Shown here: positions 15,776 through 44,897 of the stretch, piece by piece
Layout of the letters: every line of letters starts with the position of its first letter
How positions within the stretch are numbered: position 1 is the first letter of the stretch
Source: Chiloscyllium plagiosum
Lineage: Eukaryota
DNA: 44,897 bases
Direction: 5' to 3'
Assembly: GCF_004010195.1 (NCBI RefSeq)
Contig: NC_057749.1
Coordinates: 14,008,974 to 14,053,870, forward strand
The notes under the pieces: model-generated
The model's input: only the letters and a program-made list of their open reading frames with translations
The model's database searches: none
What the model was told of the DNA's origin: nothing
Program-made: the position numbers and the translations under genes

Positions 15776-16598
15776 GAAACTTGAAAGGGTTCAGAAAAGA
15801 TTTAAAACTATGTTAGCAAATTACTGCGGATGCTGGAATCTGAAACCAAAAGAGAAAATGCTGGAAACATCAGCCTGTTCAGCCTCTCCCTATAGCTCAA
15901 ATCCTCCAACCCTGGCAAGACCCTTGTAAACCAAAAGAGAAAATGCTGGAAAATCTCAGCAGGTCTGGCAGCATCTGTAAGGAGAGAAAAGAGCTGACGT
16001 TTCGAGTCAGCTTTGTCAAAGGGTCAGTCCGACTCAACGTCAGCTCTTTTCTCGCCTTACAGATGCTGCCAGACCTGCTGAGATTTTCCAGCATTTTCTC
16101 TTTTGGTTTACAAGGGTCTTGCCAGGGTTGGAGGATTTGAGCTATAGGGAGAGGCTGAACAGGCTGGGGCTGTTTTCCCTGGAGCGTTGGAGGCTGAGGG
16201 GTGGCCTTATAGAGGTTTACACAATTATGAAGAGAGAGGGTAAATAGGCAAAGTCTTTTCCCTGGGGTCGAGAGAGGGTAAATAGGCAAAGTCTTTTCCC
16301 TGGGGTCTGGGAGTCCAGAATTAGAAGGCATAGGTTTAGGGTGAGAGGAAAAAGATTATAAGAGACCTACGGGGCGCCTTTTTCACAGAGTGGTACATAT
16401 ATGGAATGAGCTGCCAGAGGAAGTGGTGGAGGCTGGTACAATTGCAACATTTAAGAGGCATTTGGATGGGTGTATGAATGGGAAGGGTTTGGAGGGATAT
16501 GGGCCAGGTACTGGGACTAGATTGGGTTGGGATATCTGGCCGGCATGGACGGGTTAGACCGAAGGGTCTGTTTCCGTGCTGTACATCTCTATGACTCT
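15776..16598 (+). mobile_element. CR1/HER1 3' fragment interrupted at 'ttta' by a fold-back Penelope insert (about 15805-16106)
   Basis: CR1 text aaagggttcagaaaagattta resumes as tttacaagggtcttgccagggttggagg at about 16107; the insert matches the Penelope terminus at 37972-38075. Confidence 0.88.
16232..16307 (+). repeat. Perfect 38-bp tandem duplication inside CR1
   Basis: gagagagggtaaataggcaaagtcttttccctggggtc twice. Confidence 0.95.
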
Positions 16599-16900: not shown

Positions 16901-17001
16901 TGCCCAGAATTTACCAGTTATGTTGGGCACGAGGTCTTACTGGAGCGGTTACAGGAAGGCCGAAAAATGTGCAAGGACATGGAGGAACTGCTGAGACTGA
17001 G
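16901..17001 (+). CDS. PSTPIP1: PSTPIP1 coding exon (equivalent to human exon 2), N-terminal F-BAR/FCH region
   Basis: Acceptor ttgttttcacag| and donor gag|gtaaga. The 101 nt translate as [34 protein letters not shown], matching human PSTPIP1 [34 protein letters not shown] as I recall it, and closer to PSTPIP1 than PSTPIP2. Confidence 0.95.
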
Positions 17002-17943: not shown

Positions 17944-18018
17944 GGCATATGCAGAAGAGAAATATGGGAAGGAGCTGGTCCATATAGCCCGCAAAGCTGG
18001 AGGTCAAATGGAGATAAA
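17944..18018 (+). CDS. PSTPIP1: PSTPIP1 coding exon (equivalent to human exon 3), F-BAR domain
   Basis: Acceptor ttttgttttgtgcag| and donor aaa|gtaagt. The 75 nt are phase 2-2 and in frame with the previous exon: (R)[24 protein letters not shown], versus human [25 protein letters not shown]. Confidence 0.95.
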
Positions 18019-18239
18019 GTAAGTGTGTATCTTAGTTTTGCCATGTTGTGCTAAATGGAAAATATTTGGTGTGCTTATCAGTGTCTGATTGCTCTTTGTT
18101 GCCTGCCACTTTAAGCTGTTATTTAATAGATTTCATAACCTTGGACGGGAATTCTCTGTACAGAATATAACCGGTTGAGAAATCTGTTGATCTCATTTGA
18201 GGGAAACTTCGTGCAGTCATTGGAGGAATGTTACTGCAT

Positions 18240-26250: not shown

Positions 26251-27060
26251 AAAATGTATTGGTAGTGTAAAAGTGTTGATCTTAATATGTAACTGAGATA
26301 GTTTGCATCATCGATGATCACTATTACCAGAGCAACTGGGCCATGGTGCTATCTGGTCACCCTTTTTATAAAGCCCCGTCCTCAGGATACTTTGCAAATG
26401 ATGTTTACTGACCAACACCAGAGGGGCAGGCTATCAACGCCAATCCCAGATTTTTAGACCGTGGATTTGAATCGGCTCAGGCTTGGAGGGCCGAAGGGCC
26501 TGTTCCTGGGCTGTAAATTTTCCTTGTTCTTTTATCTATGGTAATGACAGACAGACCTTGTCCCTGTAGAACAAAAGATAAAGATCAGGTTTATAAAAGT
26601 TGTTGCATTACTTCCACTCATCGTTATGTGGCAGATGCACTAATTTTCAAAATTGAAATTTCCTTCTGATGAGCCTGTGTGTAGTAATGGATAGCTCACA
26701 CTTGACAGGCCAGCGTAAGATCCAGTGAATTATTTTTAGGCAGCCCTTGAGCCACCTCAAGCACACATTAAATACCTTGTATAATCTGGTCACGAGACAC
26801 AGCCTATTTTAAGATCTTCTAGGAGAATGTGAGGACTGCAGATGCTGGAGATCAGAGCTGAAAATGTGTTGCTGGAAAAGTGCAGCAGGTCAGGCAGCAT
26901 CCAAGGAGCAGGAGTATCGACGTTTTGGGCATGAGCCCTTCTTCAGGAATGACGTTTTAAAAGGAAGGTGTGCCAAGCAGGCTAAGATAAAAGGTAGGGA
27001 GGAGGGACTTGGGGGAGGGGTGTTGGAAATGCACTAGGTGGAAGGAGGTAAAGGTGAGGG

Positions 27061-27763
27061 TAAAGTGGTTGATGTGGTGCATATGGATTTCAGTAAGATG
27101 TTTGTTAAGCTTCCCCACAGTCGGCTATTGCACAAAATACTTAGGCATGGGATTGACGGTGATTTAATGATTTGGACCAGAAATTGGCTAGCTGAAAGAA
27201 GGCAGAGGGTAGTGGCTGATGGGAAATGTTCATCCCGGATATCAGTTACTAATGGTGTACCACAAGGAACTGTTATGGGGCCACTGCTCTTTGTCATTTT
27301 CTTCAATGACCTGGATGAAGGTGGAGAAGGACGTGTTAGTAACTTTGTGGATGACACTAAGATCATTAGAGTTAAGGATGTTGTAAGTTACAGAGGGACA
27401 TAGATAAGCTGCAGAGCAGGGCCGAGAGGTGGCAAATGGACTTTAAAGCGGAAAAGTGTGAGGTGATTCACTTTGGAAGGAGCAAAAGGAATAAAGGGTA
27501 TTGGGCTAATGGTAAGATTCTTGGTAATGAAGATGAGCAGAGAGATTTCGGCGTCCATGTGCATAGATCTTTGAAAGTTAATAGGGTTGTTAAGAAGACA
27601 TATGGTGTATTAGCTTTTATTGGTAGCGGGATTGAGTGTCGCAGCCATGAGGTCATGCTGCAGCTGTACAAAACTCTGGTGTGGCTACACTTGGAGTATT
27701 GTGTACCATTTTGGTCACCACATTATAGGAATGATGTGGAAGCTTTGGAAAGGGCTCAGAGGG
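27061..27763 (+). mobile_element. CR1 LINE reverse-transcriptase fragment
   Basis: VDVVHMDFSKMF, VTNGVPQGTVMGPLLFVIFFNDLD, FVDDTKI, HLEYCVPFWSP. Confidence 0.93.
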
Positions 27764-27989
27764 NNNNNNNNNNNNNNNNNNNNNNNNNNNNNNNNNNNNN
27801 NNNNNNNNNNNNNNNNNNNNNNNNNNNNNNNNNNNNNNNNNNNNNNNNNNNNNNNNNNNNNNNNNNNNNNNNNNNNNNNNNNNNNNNNNNNNNNNNNNNN
27901 NNNNNNNNNNNNNNNNNNNNNNNNNNNNNNNNNNNNNNNNNNNNNNNNNNNNNNNNNNNNNNNNNNNNNNNNNNNNNNNNNNNNNNNNN
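27764..27989. other. Assembly gap (226 N)
   Basis: Run of N. Confidence 1.
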
Positions 27990-28708
27990 GGTGGAAGGTG
28001 TTGGTAAAGTGGATGAACTGTTCAACCACCTCGTGGGAGCACGAGGCAGCGCCGATACAGTCATCGATGTAGTGGAGGAAAAGGTGGGGGGTGGTGCCAG
28101 TGTAGCTGCAGAAGATGGACTGTTCCACATATCCTACGAAGAGGCAGGCATAGCTGTGGCTGTTTTAAGATCGCTCTGTTAAATTGGGTTGCCCAATACT
28201 TAGTCCATTCCCGTTTGCTTTACCACATGCAGCGCAACAACTGACCATCAGCAATTAAGCCTGATTTGGAACAGGCTGAAGGCCTGCTGATATTTTGACA
28301 TGACTTCTGTGATGCTTGAATAACCACACTTTGAAACTAAAGAAATGTAATTTTGCAGGCTGCTTGGGAGGAAGAGGAACTGAGTCAGACTCCTCTAGAT
28401 TGGTCTTTACTGATTCTGTTCCACATTACATGCTTTGCAAGTGCAGCTAAGCAGTATTCCCTGCTAAAATATTTATGCATAACACTGTCAAATCCTAGCT
28501 CTAATATATAGCAATTGCAACCATCCTCAAACCCCACATCTCCTCCACTTGCCTTAAGACCATGGCCAGTAAAGCAACCAACTCAACAATTGGCCTACTC
28601 ATTCATAGGACTTGGACATCACAAGCAAAGCCAGTGCTACTTCCCATTGAAACAGTGGTGGTGAGCTGCCACCTTGAGCTGTTGCAATCTGGTTGGCCTA
28701 AAATTAAA

Positions 28709-29469: not shown

Positions 29470-30170
29470 AAACGGTGCAGACCAGATTTACCAGACTAAT
29501 ACCTGGCATGGCCTAGTTGCCTTATTAGGAAAGGCTGTGCAGGCTAGACTTGAATCTGACTAGATGAGAAGAGTAAGATCCTGTTTCCTTTTCTAACAGA
29601 ACCCAGAACAAAAGATCGCTGGTTCAAAATCAGGGGCTGTCCATTTAAAACAGAAGTGAGGATAATTTTTGAGTTGTGAGCCTTTGGAACTTGCTTCCAG
29701 AAAAGGTGGTGGTAGCAGAGGTTTTGAATATTTTTCAGGCAGAGGTGGCTAGAGTTTTAGTGATCAAAGGGGTGAAAGGTGATATGGGATAGGCAGGAAT
29801 GTGGATCAGTCAGATCAGCCACAATCTTATTGAACGGCAGAGTAAGCGTGAGGGGCCGAATGGCCTACTTCTCTTTGTATATTGGTAAGACTTAATGTCA
29901 GAACTAGGGGCAGGAGTAGGCCATCTGACCCCTCCAGCCTGCTCTGCCATTCAATAAGATGATTGGTCTTTTCGTGGCCTCTCTCCACTCGCCCGTCCGC
30001 TCACCATAACCCTTAATTCCTTCACTGTTCAAAAATCAATCTTTTGCCTTAAAAATATTTCAATAAGGTAGCTTTAACTGCTTCACTGGGTAGGGAATTC
30101 CAAAGATTCCAAGTACTCAGTCCGAAAGCTGCTCCCCCTTATTTTGAGGCTATACTCCCGAGTTCAAGTC
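29470..30170. mobile_element. Two CR1 3' fragments tail to tail (29470-29880 +, 29888-30170 -)
   Basis: ggggccgaatggcctacttct tail followed by an inverted ggagtaggccatctgacccc tail. Confidence 0.7.
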
Positions 30171-31115
30171 AAGGAGCAGACAACAAGATTGTTTCTGGAA
30201 GCGTTATGCATACAAAGCCCAGATGCAGGTACCTACAACGTTCTGGACTCCAGTTGGCTATTTGTAGAAAGCTGAAATGTCTGTGGGCAGCTGTAAGTGC
30301 GAACACTGTTCATCTGCACAGCACAAAATCCAGGACATTTCTCTCAAAGAAAGCTTTAACCGGTCAATTGATGAATTTGAGAAAGGGAAGTGGACTGAAC
30401 GTGGATGCAGTAGAATACGCCATGTAAAAAAGAATGCAAATGAGGAAGGCTTAGAGAAACTCTCTCGAATCTATAAATTGAAGGGGAAATGGGGCTTTTG
30501 GACAAATGTAGAAGCTCTGTTCCAAGATGATTCCTTGTCTGAATTTGCAAATCTGAAACTGAATACAAAAAGGCTGAGTATTGCAGGAAGTAAAACAGTC
30601 CCAATTCAAAATGAAATCTAAATGACCACTTGCTGATTCATTTCTTCTAAAAGATGTCTTATTGTTCATAGCCATTGGAAGATCACTGCCCTAGCAGAGT
30701 GTACTCTCTGCTTGTCCTTTTTATTATTAGGGAGTTCAGCTATCACTGAGGTGTTTATTTCCCTCTCCCAGCTACCTCATAAAGATGCTGATTTGATTTA
30801 TTACTGTAACGTGTACAGAGATACAGTGAAAAGTGTTGTTTTGTGTGCTATTCAGCTAAGTCAGATCTGACCTGCCATGCCTTGCATCAGGGAAATAGAG
30901 CAGAATGCAGAATATAGTATTACAGCTACAGAGAAGGTGCAGAGAAAGATCAACTCTGACATATGATAGGTCAGTTCAAAAGCCTGAAAACCGTGGGGAA
31001 GAAGCTGTTCTTGAATCTGTTCATGATTTGGAGATGCTGGTGTTGGACTGGGCTGTACAAAGTTTAAAAAATCACACAACACCAGGTTATAGTCCAGCAG
31101 GTTTAATTGGAAGCA

Positions 31116-31150
31116 CACTAGCTTTCGGAGCAACGCTCCTTCATCAGGTG
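31116..31150 (-). ncRNA. Minimal hammerhead ribozyme motif (Penelope type)
   Basis: cac-CUGAUGA-a-GGAGC(guu)GCUCC-GAAA-GCUA-gug on the minus strand. Confidence 0.7.
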
Positions 31151-31164
31151 GTAGCCTGGACTAT

Positions 31165-31199
31165 CATCTGATGAAGGAGGGTCACTCCGAAAGCTAGTG
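31165..31199 (+). ncRNA. Minimal hammerhead ribozyme motif (Penelope type)
   Basis: cat-CUGAUGA-a-GGAG(ggtca)CUCC-GAAA-GCUA-gug: conserved core, helix II, AGCU palindrome in place of helix III, short helix I. Confidence 0.65.
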
Positions 31200-32957
31200 T
31201 GCTTCCAATTAAACCTGTTGGACTATAACCTGGTGTTGTGTGATTTTTAGCCTTTAATCTGTTGGTATGGATTTTCAAATTTTTGTATATTTAGCCTGAT
31301 GGAAGATGTAAAACCAGGTGGGAGGGATCTTTTGATGTTGGCTGCTTTCCCAAGGCAGTGGGTAGTATAAATGGATTCAATGAATGGGAGGCTGGTTTAT
31401 GTGATGGACTGGGCTGTGTTCGCAACTCTAGTTTCATGTGGTCCTGCACATATCAGTTGCCGTACCTAGCTGTGAGCCATTCTGGTAGGATGCTTTCTGT
31501 GGTGCATCTATAGAAAATTAGTAGGCGAGGTTGTGGACATGCTGAGTTTCCTCACCCTCTTGAGGAAGTAGAGGTGTTGGTGTGCTTTAGACAGTTATTT
31601 CAATGTGAATGGACAAGGACAGACCAACATCATGAATGCTGCAACCTGTGAGGTCCATGCTGTCACCATTTTTGATCCAATTGAGTGGCCGTTGCCAAAG
31701 GCAGTTCAGTGTGAACAACTTTACTATGGGTTTGGACTCTCATATAGGCCCAGCAGATTTCCTTCCCTTGATGGAAGATTTTTGTCTGTCTGATAGTTTC
31801 GTTGTCACCATTGCTGATGCAGGATCTTTCTCATTTAATTTCCAGATTTATTTAAGTAACTGTACTGAAATTCCCCAGCTGTCATGGTTGGATTTGAACA
31901 CTGGCTTACTGGACCAGTCATGAAACTATTCTAGGCTACATTTGTTTGAACTGCTGACACAGGCTATAATGCAACCACAAAGCTTTGGGCATTTATTGCT
32001 GTGTGTTGGAGGCTATCAGAGCGCTGCACGTAAATTGGAATAGGTTGGCCATGTTAGAAGTGCAGATCTTTAAGCGTCAACCAGAACAGTTCTGGAGTTA
32101 ACTGAGAGCAGGCCATGCTCTTTCGAGGATTTTCCCATCTACAAGTCTAGGGGCCTCTTGTGGTCGTCATGTCCCTATTTCTAGACCAGGAGACTTTGGT
32201 TTGAGTTCCACCTGCTCCCGAAGTCTGTGATAATATCTCTGAACAGTTTGGTTCGAGGGTTAAAATAATCAACAGGCCCAGGCAGCAGGGCGTGGGGTTT
32301 GGTGCAGATCATAGTGCTGGCCTTCCTGCATCTCTTTAATTCAGAGTGCCCTTAGAGGCAACACACCAGCATCAATACCTTTGCCTTCAGAAAGAGGTGT
32401 GTAACATGAGGGCTGGAATGCATTCATCTCCTTTCCAACTCTATTTTGATTTAGTGCCCCTCTTTTGTCCTACCCTTCCATTTTTCTTTGTTATTCCTGC
32501 ACAGTTGCTGTTGAGTAGTGCACTATCTGCTGCTTGCTAGTTGTTTGGCTGATTTAGTGTTGGAAGGGGTAAAAGAGCTAAGATTTACTGTCCAAAGCTG
32601 TTGAGACCGGTGCCCCTCCCCCACCCACCAAGGGGATGGAGTGCATTATTATCTCCACTCTCACCCCATTTTCCCCCAATAGTATTTTGGTTTTGTTTCC
32701 ATTGTTTCCCCATCTCTTTGGTTTATTTTAATTATTGTGACACTGGTGGGAGGTGTGGTTAAATGGTTATTTAACTGGGTGATTAGATGGTGGGTTATTC
32801 AAAATAAAACCAGGAGCTGGGATTTGGGTTTGGGGGAGGTGTGGCGTCATGGTAATGTCACTGGACGAGTAATGCAGAGGTCTCCGGCTAAAGCACCTTA
32901 CACAGGATGTTACATCCTACTGTGGAAGCTGGTTGGGACTCTGTCGCAGTGTCCCTA

Positions 32958-37971: not shown

Positions 37972-38885
37972 TACCAAAAGAGAAAATGCTAGAAAATCTC
38001 AGCAGGTCTGGCAGCATCTGTAAGGAGAAAAAAGAGCTGATGTTTCGAATCTAACTGACCCTTTGTCGAAGCTAAAAAAAAGGGAGAAATGGGGAGGTAT
38101 TTATATTCGGCTGAGGGAAAGTGAGTCATGGCTCCAGAAGTAAAGGTAGCAATCACGAGGTGATAATGACAGTGCATAGAGATTATAGGGAGATTAGGAG
38201 CTGTGAATGACCAAGGCAGAAGCCAGGGCTATGTGACAAAATATGTTGAGACCGGCAGGCTGTAACGTGCCTAGTTGGAAGATGAGATGCTGTTCCTCCA
38301 GTTTGCGTTGAGCTTCACTGGAACACTGCAGCAGGCCAAGGACAGACATGTGGGCATGGGAGCAGGATTGTGTGTTGAAGTGGCAAGCCACTGGATGGTC
38401 CGAGACCTGATTGCGTACAGACCGAAGGTGCTCAGCAAAGTGATCATCCAGTCGGCGTTTTGTCTCTCCGACATAGAGGAGACCATATTGGGAGCATTGA
38501 ATGCAATAGACCAAATTGAAAGAGGTACAAGTGAAACGCTGCTTAATCTGAAATGAGTATTTGGGGCCTTGGATGATGAGCATGGAAGAGGTAAAGGGGC
38601 AGGTGTTGCACCTTCTGCGATTGCATGGGAAGGTGCTGTGTGTGATGGGAGAGGTGTTTGGGTGATTGAGGAGTGGACTAGGTTGTCCTGGAGGGAACGA
38701 TCTCTGCGGAATGCAGGGAAGGGAAGGGAAGATGTGTTTATTGGTGGCGCATGTTGGAGTTGGCGAAAATAGCAGAGGATTATTCTTTGCATGTGAAGGC
38801 TGGTGGGGTGAAAGGTGAGAACAAGAGGGAACCTATTCTTGTTCTGGGAGGGGAGAGAGGGGGTGAGGGTGGCGCGGGAGATGGA
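37972..38885 (-). mobile_element. Penelope-like element 3' part with GIY-YIG endonuclease
   Basis: ORF 38194-38583: FTCTSFNLVYCIQCSQYGLLYVGETKRRLDDHFAEH...PVACHFN...LGTLQPAGLN; upstream AFRRDRSLQDNLVHS; frameshifted. Confidence 0.92.
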
Positions 38886-41446: not shown

Positions 41447-43581
41447 TTCTGCCGGTTGTTCTGCTCTACTTTTGGTCTTCCAGTCTACTAACTGTTGTAT
41501 TCTGCTCCAGGTTTTCAGAGCTACCATAATTCATTGTTTTTCTTTATTCATTTCGAGATCACTTGGACTTCTGCTAATGATGCGGTATGAATTGCAGCCC
41601 CTTAAAAGTAATATCCATGTAATAGTTGACCCTATAAATTTAACCTTAAAAAGTAATCGAAAACATTTGACTATTACTCACGTGTATATTTGGTACTTAC
41701 AGCTTGATTTTGGTTCTTGTAGAAAGTTTTCACACTGATCTTTAATTTTAAAGCCTGTATATATTTCCCCTATTTACGTTCAATATGAAGGTAACTTACA
41801 ATAGATAGTTAAATTAGTAACTATCACCAACCAGTGAACTTAAGATTTATCCGTGATGTCACCTTTTTGGGCTAGACTCTTGATTCTGAGCTTCGATTTT
41901 ATCCTATTTTTAAAAGATCTTTGAAACTGAGCCAAAAAGCAAGCAAAAAAACTCCTCTTTTTTCCCGTCTGCACTGAATTCCCACACTCTCTGCAAATTC
42001 CCTGAACTATACACTCACTTGGGCTGTGTCACACTTCTGGATGTGATCTCTCCTTCCCGATTGTGTGTGCAAATTCACCATTCTCACTTACGTTCTCACC
42101 TGTTCATTTGAACTGTTCATGTAATGTTGCATGTAGAGAAAACGGTAGGAACATTTTTATCAAGCCAGAAAGAGCAACAGAAAGTTTAAGTTTTAAAAAT
42201 AAAATCTCAAACAATTAAAACCTGAAAGAATGAGATTACATATCTATAGAAGGTCACTTTTTATGACTGAGATTAACCTGAAATACATTAAATGTTTACT
42301 TGCACTTGAAGTTTTACTTCCTGTGGCAGTAAGGTAATTACCTCTTCTGTAAAAACGTGAATGTCACGCTGTTCAGTGCATTTGAATGATGAAACCAGAC
42401 AGGGTTTCTCCAAAGCATATCTATGCCAGTGAAGGTTTGGTTTCTACATGTACCTGCCCTGGGCAAAAGTTGCTTTTGTACAGTTAGCATTGTTCATCTT
42501 TTGACAAGTTTTGGACAAATAATCTGGTTCCATTCTGATTTTTGGAAACCTAATGAATTGTTGTCCTGCTCTCAAAGTCATTCTCCCAGTCTCTTCACCT
42601 TTCTTTCTCCCCCCCCCATCATGCCAACCACTGACATCAAAGGATGATCTAAAAGGTCTTTCAATACTTTGCCTAAGAGGTCCAAATAAACCTGTTACAC
42701 GATAACTTGGTGTTGTGATTTTTTTTTTTAACATTTGCCATCCGGGAAGCAGCCTAAAGCAGGCATGGTCAAGAGAATGCCAATGTTCGTTCTGTTCAAT
42801 GTTTCATTTAACAAAAAGACCTTGACCAATCAGATTCCACTTGGTAATTCTATTCTCTCTCGATGTAAAATGTTGTTGTTCTTTTCCATTTACAAGAATA
42901 CTGATGTCATGATGAGCTCAAGATGGGAGCTTTGCCGAGATGTGTCCAGGAGAATTTACTAGGTTGAGCTGTGTTCGCAAAGTGACTTGTTCCTTTGTGA
43001 CTTGAACTGATCAGCCAGATTCTTGTTTCTGTAATAGTTTGCATGTTGACAGAAGGATGCATATGCAAGCCTACAGTGGTTAATCAGCACCCTGGTGTTG
43101 TACTGTAGCAATAACAACGTCAAGAAAGACATGCAATCATACAGCATCTTGCATAAATATTAGATGTGGCAACCATTGGAAACAGACAGGGCAGGCAATT
43201 TGCATACAGCAAGCTCCCACAAACAGCAATGCGCTTTTGTGAATCCAGTTAAAGAAGAATAATGACCAAATTGTGGGAATGTAATCACATAATGACTGAA
43301 ATGGGTGAGTGGTGAAAATATCCTCCTTTTATTCAGCAACTGCAAAGGGCACAAGTTTGAGGTGGCAAAAGAATCATGAAATATAGCACTTGCAAGAGTC
43401 ACTTTATGCACGGTTCTTAGATTAAAATTCCACTACTGTGGTGTTACATTGTTTTATCTATAGTATTCAAAGGTTTGAGGGGCTTTTGTCCTGGGACACA
43501 GGAGATCGGTGCTAAGTGTTGGCTGCTACTACTGATGGGATTAAGAGTGTCTATCTGGTCTGTTTGCATAATTAAGAGGTC

Positions 43582-44548
43582 ATGATGTGGAGATGCCAGT
43601 GTTGGACTTGGGTGGACAACATTTTTAAAAATCACACAACACCAGCTTATAGTCCAACAGGTTTATTTGGAAGCACTAGCTTTTGGGGCACTGCTCCTTT
43701 GTCAGGTAGCTAGTGGGGCAGGATCAAAGGACACAGAATCTATAGCACAAGATCAAGTGTCTGATCATGCAACTGATGCAATATATTAAACCTAGATTGC
43801 TGTTTAGTCTTTTAGAATGGGTTGCAGGTTTCGGTTCATTAATATGTAAATGCCAGAACTTCTTCCAAGTCACAACCTCGAGGACTTAAGGTTTTATATT
43901 TTTTTTTTAAAAAGTGACATCTCAGCTCAGACAATGCATTAAAGGTGTGAGGTTAGAGTCTGTCTGGTATTACAATCTTGAGTCAGACTGGTTCTGTTTC
44001 CAAAGTAGGGATTTATAAAATGTCACATGGATTGACTGTGCTTTTTCAGCAAAATAGAATGTATCTGCAAATGCACATTCACGCCATAGAGTTTGTGCAT
44101 GCATCCATGTGAAGGAGAGAGTTTGTGTGTGCGTGCTTGGTGCAGTGTGTGAGTGTGTAACAGAACATAAGCCTGTGAGAGGCTGTGTGCAGGAGTGTGT
44201 ATCTGATTTTGTGTGTGTGTGTGTGTGTGTGGTGTAGTGCCTACTTTGGAAATTGAACCAGTGACTCAAGGTTAGAATGTGACTTTGGGAATGCGACTTG
44301 AAAGAAGTTCTGGAATTTACATATCAATTAATCGAAATTTACAACATATTCTAAAAGATGAAAGATTTAAAGCAATCTGGGTTTGTTCAATATATCGTAT
44401 TCGTTGCATGACACTATGATCTTGTGCTATAAATTGTGTCCTATGATCTTACCCTACTAGCTACCTGACGAAGGAGCAGTGTTTTGAAAGCTAGTGCTTC
44501 CAAATAAACCAGTTGGACTGAACCTGATGTGTGTTTTTTAACTTTGTA
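43582..44548. mobile_element. Long fold-back Penelope-type element (same terminal family as 2171 and 31022)
   Basis: Imperfect inverted arms about 43615-43875 and 44290-44548; decayed hammerhead ctgacga-aggagcagtgtttt-gaaagcta-gtg at about 44465-44496; internal (tg)n. Confidence 0.8.
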
Positions 44549-44640
44549 ATAGTTTTGTAAATATTTTACTATGTTATATTAAACAACAGGTTAGTGAAGG
44601 GTTATGAATGAACAGGAATCCAGTCTTTAGTAAATATAGT

Positions 44641-44897
44641 GAGCTGAAAATGTGTTGCTGGAAAAGCTCAGCAGGTCAGGAACAGGAGAATCATCGTTTC
44701 GGGCATAAGCCCTTCTTCAGGAATGAGGAAAGTGTGTCCAGCAGGCTAAGATAAAAGGTAGGGAGGAGGGACTTGGGGGAGGGGTGTTGGAAATGTGATG
44801 GGTGGAAGGAGGTCAGGGTGAGGGTGATAGGCCAGAGTGGGGTGGGGGCGGAGAGGTCAGGAAGAAGATTGCAGGTTAGGAAGGCGGTGCTGAGTTC
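44641..44897 (-). mobile_element. Penelope-like element 3' terminus/pLTR, running off the window
   Basis: Near-identical to 26855-27060; minus-strand CUGAAGA-AGGGC(uuau)GCCC-GAAAC at about 44696-44720. Confidence 0.8.

Follow-up and report, generated by a model that had tools for sequence, protein, structure and literature searches.

A fold-back insert and its setting

The window analysed here is a 44,897-bp stretch of contig NC_057749.1 of Chiloscyllium plagiosum. It holds a PSTPIP1-like exon on the + strand (16901-17001), which matches PSTPIP1 of the PDB with E = 2.2e-11, and a second one near 17946-18020 on the same strand. A simple splice-site filter returned no further PSTPIP1 exons in the remaining 27 kb of the window. 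Because a later exon was not found there, we infer rather than observe that the insert described below lies in an intron of a PSTPIP1-like gene.

The insert sits inside another repeat: once it is taken out, the reading frame of the host repeat is continuous across the site. The interruption proposed in an earlier sequence-only reading of this DNA therefore stands. The name given to the host, a Rex1 LINE, is less firm: judged by its peptides it is probably a Rex1/Babar LINE, and Pfam gave no match on this LINE piece.

Two inverted arms of 88 nt (31067-31154 and 31161-31248), 93% complementary and separated by a 6-nt spacer, make up most of the insert. Folded as a hairpin, it has a computed energy of -164.3 kcal/mol (z = -21), and none of 200 shuffles reached equal stability. 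An exact 8-bp direct repeat, AATCTGTT, flanks it; both the arms and this target-site duplication (TSD) had been claimed from the sequence and were recovered. If a single mismatch is allowed, the TSD lengthens to 12 bp (31010-31021 / 31252-31263), a version nearer to that of most relatives. Its length is variable: 8-12 bp in the insert and mostly 9-14 bp among the relatives. All features are listed in Table 1, where positions within an arm are counted from C3 of the hammerhead CUGAUGA, set to 0. The filler at the junction of the arms ends in a G, at position -9 of the right arm, which is possibly a cap-derived base.

Table 1 Features of the insert, in window coordinates
Feature	Position	Strand	Remarks
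Left TSD	31014..31021	+	Exact over 8 bp; 12 bp, one of them mismatched, if begun at 31010
Penelope 'tail', 40 nt, left arm only	31022..31061	-	Putative distal RT start site, by comparison with PMC11167929
ATG of the parent ORF, at the end of the tail	31024-31022	-	By match to the parent element
Left arm, sense pLTR copy, -7 to ORF ATG	31022..31154	-	93-94% identity to parent pLTRs
Minimal type I hammerhead, consensus intact	31116..31150	-	Predicted cut 31119/31118, after CUA (PMC4209133)
Junction filler, 5 nt	31155..31159	+	Matches neither arm in register
Right arm, sense pLTR copy, -8 to +81, without tail	31160..31249	+	
Ends of the right arm	31160..31249	+	-8, putative transcription start; +81, proximal RT start site
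Minimal hammerhead, helix II cut to 4 bp by two substitutions	31165..31199	+	Predicted cut 31196/31197
ATTAAA polyadenylation signal of the pLTR (+40..+45)	31208..31213	+	GU/U-rich 3' of the signal; evidence at family level, not from the insert itself
Segment between right arm and right TSD	31250-31255	+	Either an eroded element end or a piece of a longer TSD
Right TSD	31256..31263	+	8 bp exact

Hammerhead motifs of the two arms

Both strands of the insert carry a motif that satisfies the minimal-hammerhead pattern (core CUGANGA/GAAA, helix II, palindromic stem III and helix I), in agreement with the earlier claim of one minimal, dimer-type hammerhead per strand. The minus-strand motif, with C3 at 31147, reads CAC-CUGAUGA-A-GGAGC/GUU/GCUCC-GAAA-GC-UA-GUG; the plus-strand one, with C3 at 31168 and an eroded helix II, reads CAU-CUGAUGA-A-GGAG/GGUCA/CUCC-GAAA-GC-UA-GUG. 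The pattern scan gave 128 motifs in about 322 kb, comprising the window and loci selected for the family, versus 0.7 in mononucleotide shuffles. In an Rfam scan of the insert the hammerhead family went unmatched, and the only hits were sub-threshold miRNA hairpins. We regard the two motifs as predicted minimal hammerheads of Penelope-like elements (PLEs), with putative cleavage sites.

As the arms are joined head to head, a transcript of either strand has its antisense arm first. The computed pairing probability of helix II is 0.39 and 0.98 in the isolated arms and below 1e-10 in the full insert, so both ribozymes should be silent; the modelled fold thus agrees with the sequestration by the complementary arm that had been proposed. 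According to this model, the insert's ribozyme should be a passenger that is not foldable in read-through RNA. Thermodynamic dimer folding did not single out an active hammerhead dimer, a structure beyond the modelling reach of that method.

Among copies, core and flanking non-CpG sites are equally variable (0-5%), as expected of dead copies. The common source-level variants (-6, -4, -1, loop 2, +32/33 and +41) all fall outside the hammerhead core, and a second hammerhead family of the window differs in helix II and has ACGU where this one has AGCU. That common variants avoid the core and that a second family swaps helix II and palindrome would support selection in the parents.

The parent element

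At locus L083 the tail continues directly into an ORF. We searched with this tail-ORF junction and fetched four of the best 40 scored matches; all four loci are built as pLTR-ORF-pLTR, their pLTRs share 92-95% identity with the arm of the insert, and the repeat unit of L084 measures about 3.4 kb. Pfam recognised RVT_1 in both RT segments scanned and gave no match on the endonuclease segment of L084. Read by eye, the translation contains DKG, a CX4CXXC linker (present in both L084 and L085) and a CCHH-type GIY-YIG.

A CX2-5CXXC linker before GIY-YIG is described as a mark of Neptune and Nematis, Penelope and Poseidon being listed without it (PMC8557442); the linker motif thus favours Neptune or Nematis over Poseidon. 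By sequence identity, both arms of the insert correspond to one segment, from pLTR to ATG, of an autonomous PLE that is present in the same genome. This parent appears to be an abundant, endonuclease-positive element of Neptune type, whose ORF encodes RT and, at the C-terminal end, GIY-YIG. The Penelope origin suggested from the sequence holds, and the autonomous element with the same terminus is present.

Related repeats in the window

Two other fold-backs of the window are close to this family. The one at 2170-2371 is shorter and belongs to a sister subfamily; it is 2 nt shorter after the cut site, has an AATAAA signal, and shows a one-sided tail and an apparent TSD. An older, long fold-back of a related subfamily lies at 43580-44550, with arms of at least 250 nt, and the relatives L040 and L044 link it to the end of a GIY-YIG ORF.

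The second hammerhead repeat family occupies 26855-27061 and 44641-44825 on the minus strand, and forms a fold-back at L084:4707-4864. Its motif has CUGAAGA, a GGGC/GCCC helix II, the ACGU palindrome and, in the best copies, a GUC triplet; it is probably the pLTR end of another PLE family. A decayed PLE endonuclease fragment of a different family lies at 38194-38832 on the minus strand (Pfam GIY-YIG, E = 0.0024, below cut-off), and an RT-like fragment at 27715-28164 adjoins a masked stretch. The fold-backs at 15871-16166 and 29824-29960 are unrelated to the insert's PLE family; one of them is presumably CR1-like LINE 3' sequence.

Copies and their junctions

The family is very abundant: in the 3.56-Gb genome one 27-mer of the arm has 12,729 exact matches, and one 26-mer downstream of the ribozyme has 28,195. 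Nevertheless, the insert's own junction occurs once, with up to 3 mismatches allowed, and the 61 short fold-backs at the loci examined show 58 different junction strings. These counts do not support a self-propagating family, whose daughter copies would share the internal junction.

The sequence-only reading had taken the insert for a MITE- or retrozyme-like non-autonomous parasite, transcribed and mobilised as a unit. Its short geometry is indeed strongly favoured (all 40 best scored matches span nearly the full 234 bp), one simple symmetric join is shared by 4 of the 61 short fold-backs, and some RNA reads span the joins of fold-backs (17 and 3). However, sizes form a continuous range up to full-length elements, with arms from less than 50 to more than 700 nt, the longest reaching the endonuclease-coding end. 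The short copies lack a TATA box, the ribozyme is buried in the 88-bp hairpin, and the insert, which has no tandem units, bears a tail on one side rather than terminal inverted repeats. With its junction unique as well, we consider such a parasite very unlikely. As to the two models invoked, asymmetric ends, a variable TSD and a partner that is a retroelement, not a DNA transposon, rule against a MITE; a single inverted pair, instead of direct tandem units with a hammerhead each, rules against a non-LTR retrozyme.

A best-match search favours the geometry of its own query; it was therefore left out of the turn-point statistics, which use coordinate-ordered pattern matches. Among these ordered copies solos are common, some turn in the loop of helix II, and others have arms that measure from 120 to more than 700 nt. 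The same reading had held that random turnaround points would mark the copies as one-off insertions: the points do differ copy by copy, but they are not random, being clustered at the 5' edge of the hammerhead.

Regularities across the fold-back population

In 67 of 71 fold-backs one arm, and only one, carries the tail (35/39 unselected, 31/31 best-match and the insert itself). The tail-less arms end at +81..+92. By analogy, the one-tail rule and these ends match the two internal RT start sites and the extension of both strands demonstrated in vitro for PAc, a Poseidon element of Anolis (PMC11167929).

The 5' ends of arms were called with a gapped end-caller at 71 of the first 100 listed exact anchor matches, namely all those in the first 8.6 Mb of contig C1; this census represents one stretch of one contig, and its calls may err by a few bases. 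Forty-six ends fall at -14..+5, 10 at +6..+37, one at -40..-15 and 14 beyond -40, with a mode at -8 (8/71). Per base, the rate is about 7% in the -14..+5 zone versus about 0.5% and 0.3% on either side. No hot spot was found at the predicted cut (+29), where two of the 71 ends lie at +29..+31 and one at +34; with only these two or three ends near it, the templates would be mostly uncleaved.

Another account of these ends is that RT, instead of running off a capped 5' end, stalls on long RNAs at the folded hammerhead, be it at helix II or at a ribozyme that is dimeric or bound by protein. Twenty-one of the 71 ends, at -4..+5, lie just past helix II and a few copies turn in its loop; besides, the run-off start at -8 is itself deduced from TATA spacing and arm ends. 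Ends left by a stall should nonetheless lie at +20 or above, the hairpin's 3' foot, and few are seen there, whereas the mode is at -8 and ends are almost absent beyond -14. The TATA spacing agrees with a start at -8 too. In our estimate stalling is highly improbable.

TATAAA is found 32-34 nt before C3 in 41 of the 43 arms that hold both motifs, in old and young subfamilies alike; in the parent it starts 30 nt ahead of the A at -8. With the TATA box in this position, the 5' end of the RNA would lie some 8 nt ahead of the hammerhead core, at a putative transcription start at -8.

The base at -9 is non-templated in 1,957 of 9,946 exact matches and the templated C in the other 7,989. G occupies 79 of the first 100 listed non-C cases, as compared with 12 of the first 100 listed at -10 and 26 at -8, where T is found in 66 and 52, respectively. 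Likewise, a hand count of arms with a non-C filler directly before -8, mostly best-match loci and including the insert, has G in 9 of 10. An untemplated 5'-end G has been ascribed to cap copying for L1 and SVA (PMC3287187). Much of the excess at -9 is ambiguous, since in symmetric joins, which give G when read along one strand but C or T along the opposite one, the partner arm can supply the G; the ten or so arms with filler are a small set but bear on the question less ambiguously. In a related observation, the junction fillers of L023, L025, L026, L006 and the insert often repeat snippets of the hammerhead 5' edge, once or twice, as if RT had repeatedly re-primed near the RNA end.

In X19, the single RNA run to yield reads, the poly(A) begins at +57 in 382 reads and at +60 in 462. 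These family poly(A) sites lie downstream of A(A/T)TAAA, and the two RT start sites are further downstream still. The run is 3'-biased, about 2% of it was read, and its source may be a species related to this one (of 2,945 reads, 101 at >=99%); within that fraction no pile-up of starts or ends was seen.

Origin of the second arm

A further explanation retains the PLE origin and has a single cDNA, or an antisense template, fold back and be copied; such self-priming has been put forward for the head-to-head repeats of rotifer Penelope elements (PMC3846280). Palindromic joins are common, and the two arms usually share alleles (22/26 at -6 and 68/71 at +41), although later homogenisation fits this too. 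Self-priming alone leaves unexplained why the second arm stops at the known second RT start site, as it does in 67 of 71 cases, and many joins are asymmetric or bear filler. Moreover, the arms disagree at -6 in 4 of 26 fold-backs, against 11 expected under random pairing and a transversion background of 1.2%. Arms that mostly share alleles, with discordance above the background, argue for one RNA or donor as the usual case, two templates being possible. Finally, the join of one fold-back, L055, holds about 700 nt that translate like the RT/EN region of another PLE. Taking both sides together, we find self-priming unlikely.

The arms of L055 are 244 nt long and 98.8% identical. The content between them suggests template switching between families, or a later insertion.

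A proposed two-nick model of fold-back formation

The one-tail rule, the 5'-end clustering and the poly(A) sites together suggest two run-off cDNAs of the 5' end of an uncleaved mRNA, presumably primed from both target nicks. The RT-endonuclease would cut both target strands, at nicks about 8-14 nt apart. Each 3'-OH would then prime RT at an internal position of the RNA, which would be the tail site (about +120) for one and the proximal site (about +82..+90) for the other. The two cDNAs would extend as far as the RNA 5' end, some 8 nt before the hammerhead core, or close to it, and their ends would be joined head to head through microhomology or a few filler bases. The template RNA would be uncleaved, because both arms span the cut site. 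For a related PLE in vitro, it is reported that both strands are cut and extended, that two internal starts bound the tail, and that uncleaved RNA is used (PMC11167929).

We thus think it quite probable that the fold-back is a dead-on-arrival PLE by-product, made during insertion by this two-nick mechanism. The 5'-end clustering, and poly(A) sites upstream of the RT start sites, appear from the sequences to go beyond the patterns that we found in print. A literature search at title and abstract level returned no twin-priming or strong-stop model for PLEs, which supplements or subscription papers may hold; at the same level, and with Repbase outside its scope, it returned no palindromic non-autonomous PLEs of cartilaginous fish.

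More tentatively, the pLTR may be organised like a retroviral U3-R-U5: a TATA box upstream, R from -8 to about +58 with the hammerhead, and RT starts at about +85 and +120. If so, the RT start sites of the normal mRNA would all lie within its first 130 nt, and the first product of PLE replication would be a target-primed cDNA of strong-stop type. Its transfer to the R copy at the 3' end would yield long and partial-tandem insertions; failed transfer would leave solo stubs, and priming at both nicks would give fold-backs. The main template would then be a linear, capped, uncleaved mRNA and not a ribozyme-made circle.

As an element the insert is ordinary, a stub of the published PLE fold-back pattern. 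The single locus matters little: it is a decayed stub in an apparently intronic position, whose only plausible effects would be to give the host pre-mRNA a putative 88-bp dsRNA hairpin and a putative cryptic poly(A) signal. Taken together, the stubs, in their tens of thousands, record PLE RT start and stop points in vivo. The formation of tandem and inverted PLE repeats and the role of the hammerhead are described as open (PMC8557442, PMC11167929); the regularities in start sites, poly(A) sites and tails lead to a specific model, testable in the existing in vitro system.

Comparison with known systems

In descriptions of EN+ PLE insertions, a 5'-truncated copy lies next to the element in inverted orientation, and a tail of 30-40 bp is present on one side (PMC8557442, PMC3846280, PMC2377424). 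The insert resembles these canonical cases in its head-to-head inverted pLTR, its tail at one end and a TSD of about 8-14 bp; the pLTR also runs into the ORF start, as it does there, and holds TATA/Inr-like motifs, as reported for rotifer Pen2a. It differs in being a minimal case with no ORF between the arms, in a very high copy number, and in ends clustered at the hammerhead 5' edge.

Hammerhead pairs on opposite strands, about 100-700 bp apart, have been noted before, and dispersed motifs were ascribed to truncated PLEs (PMC4209133). Like the minimal hammerheads of metazoan PLEs in that account, the insert's motifs have a bulged A after A9, a G10.1-C11.1 pair and palindromic 15-16 positions without helix III (PMC4209133). 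Their helix I has only 3 bp, versus 4-5 bp in the Schistosoma motifs (PMC4209133), and their triplet is CUA.

PAc, whose genomic copy ends are mapped in Fig. S2 of its report, likewise starts RT internally at two sites, which mark the limits of the tail and lie close to the beginning of the ORF (PMC11167929). Cutting and extension of both strands, with uncleaved RNA as substrate, belong to PAc and would apply to the insert's parent by extension (PMC11167929). The parent has the CX4CXXC linker of Neptune and Nematis, whereas PAc is a Poseidon element; one of its putative RT start sites is at the ATG and the other shortly before it, whereas those of PAc are 111-118 nt into the ORF; and its hammerhead is wholly upstream of the ORF, unlike that of PAc (PMC11167929).

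Non-LTR retrozymes share with the insert a non-coding nature, a type I hammerhead and kinship with PLE pLTRs, and consist of units repeated directly in tandem, each with its own ribozyme (bioRxiv 10.64898/2026.07.22.740005). The insert, in contrast, is a single inverted pair, with ribozymes on opposite strands and no dimerising in cis.

Two other known processes give related outcomes. In LTR elements, priming near the RNA 5' end produces a short run-off cDNA, the minus-strand strong-stop DNA; in L1 twin priming, two nicks prime one insertion and an inversion results. The mechanism proposed here is unlike both: its primer is target DNA and not tRNA, no integrase takes part, and the two PLE cDNAs copy the same overlapping segment.
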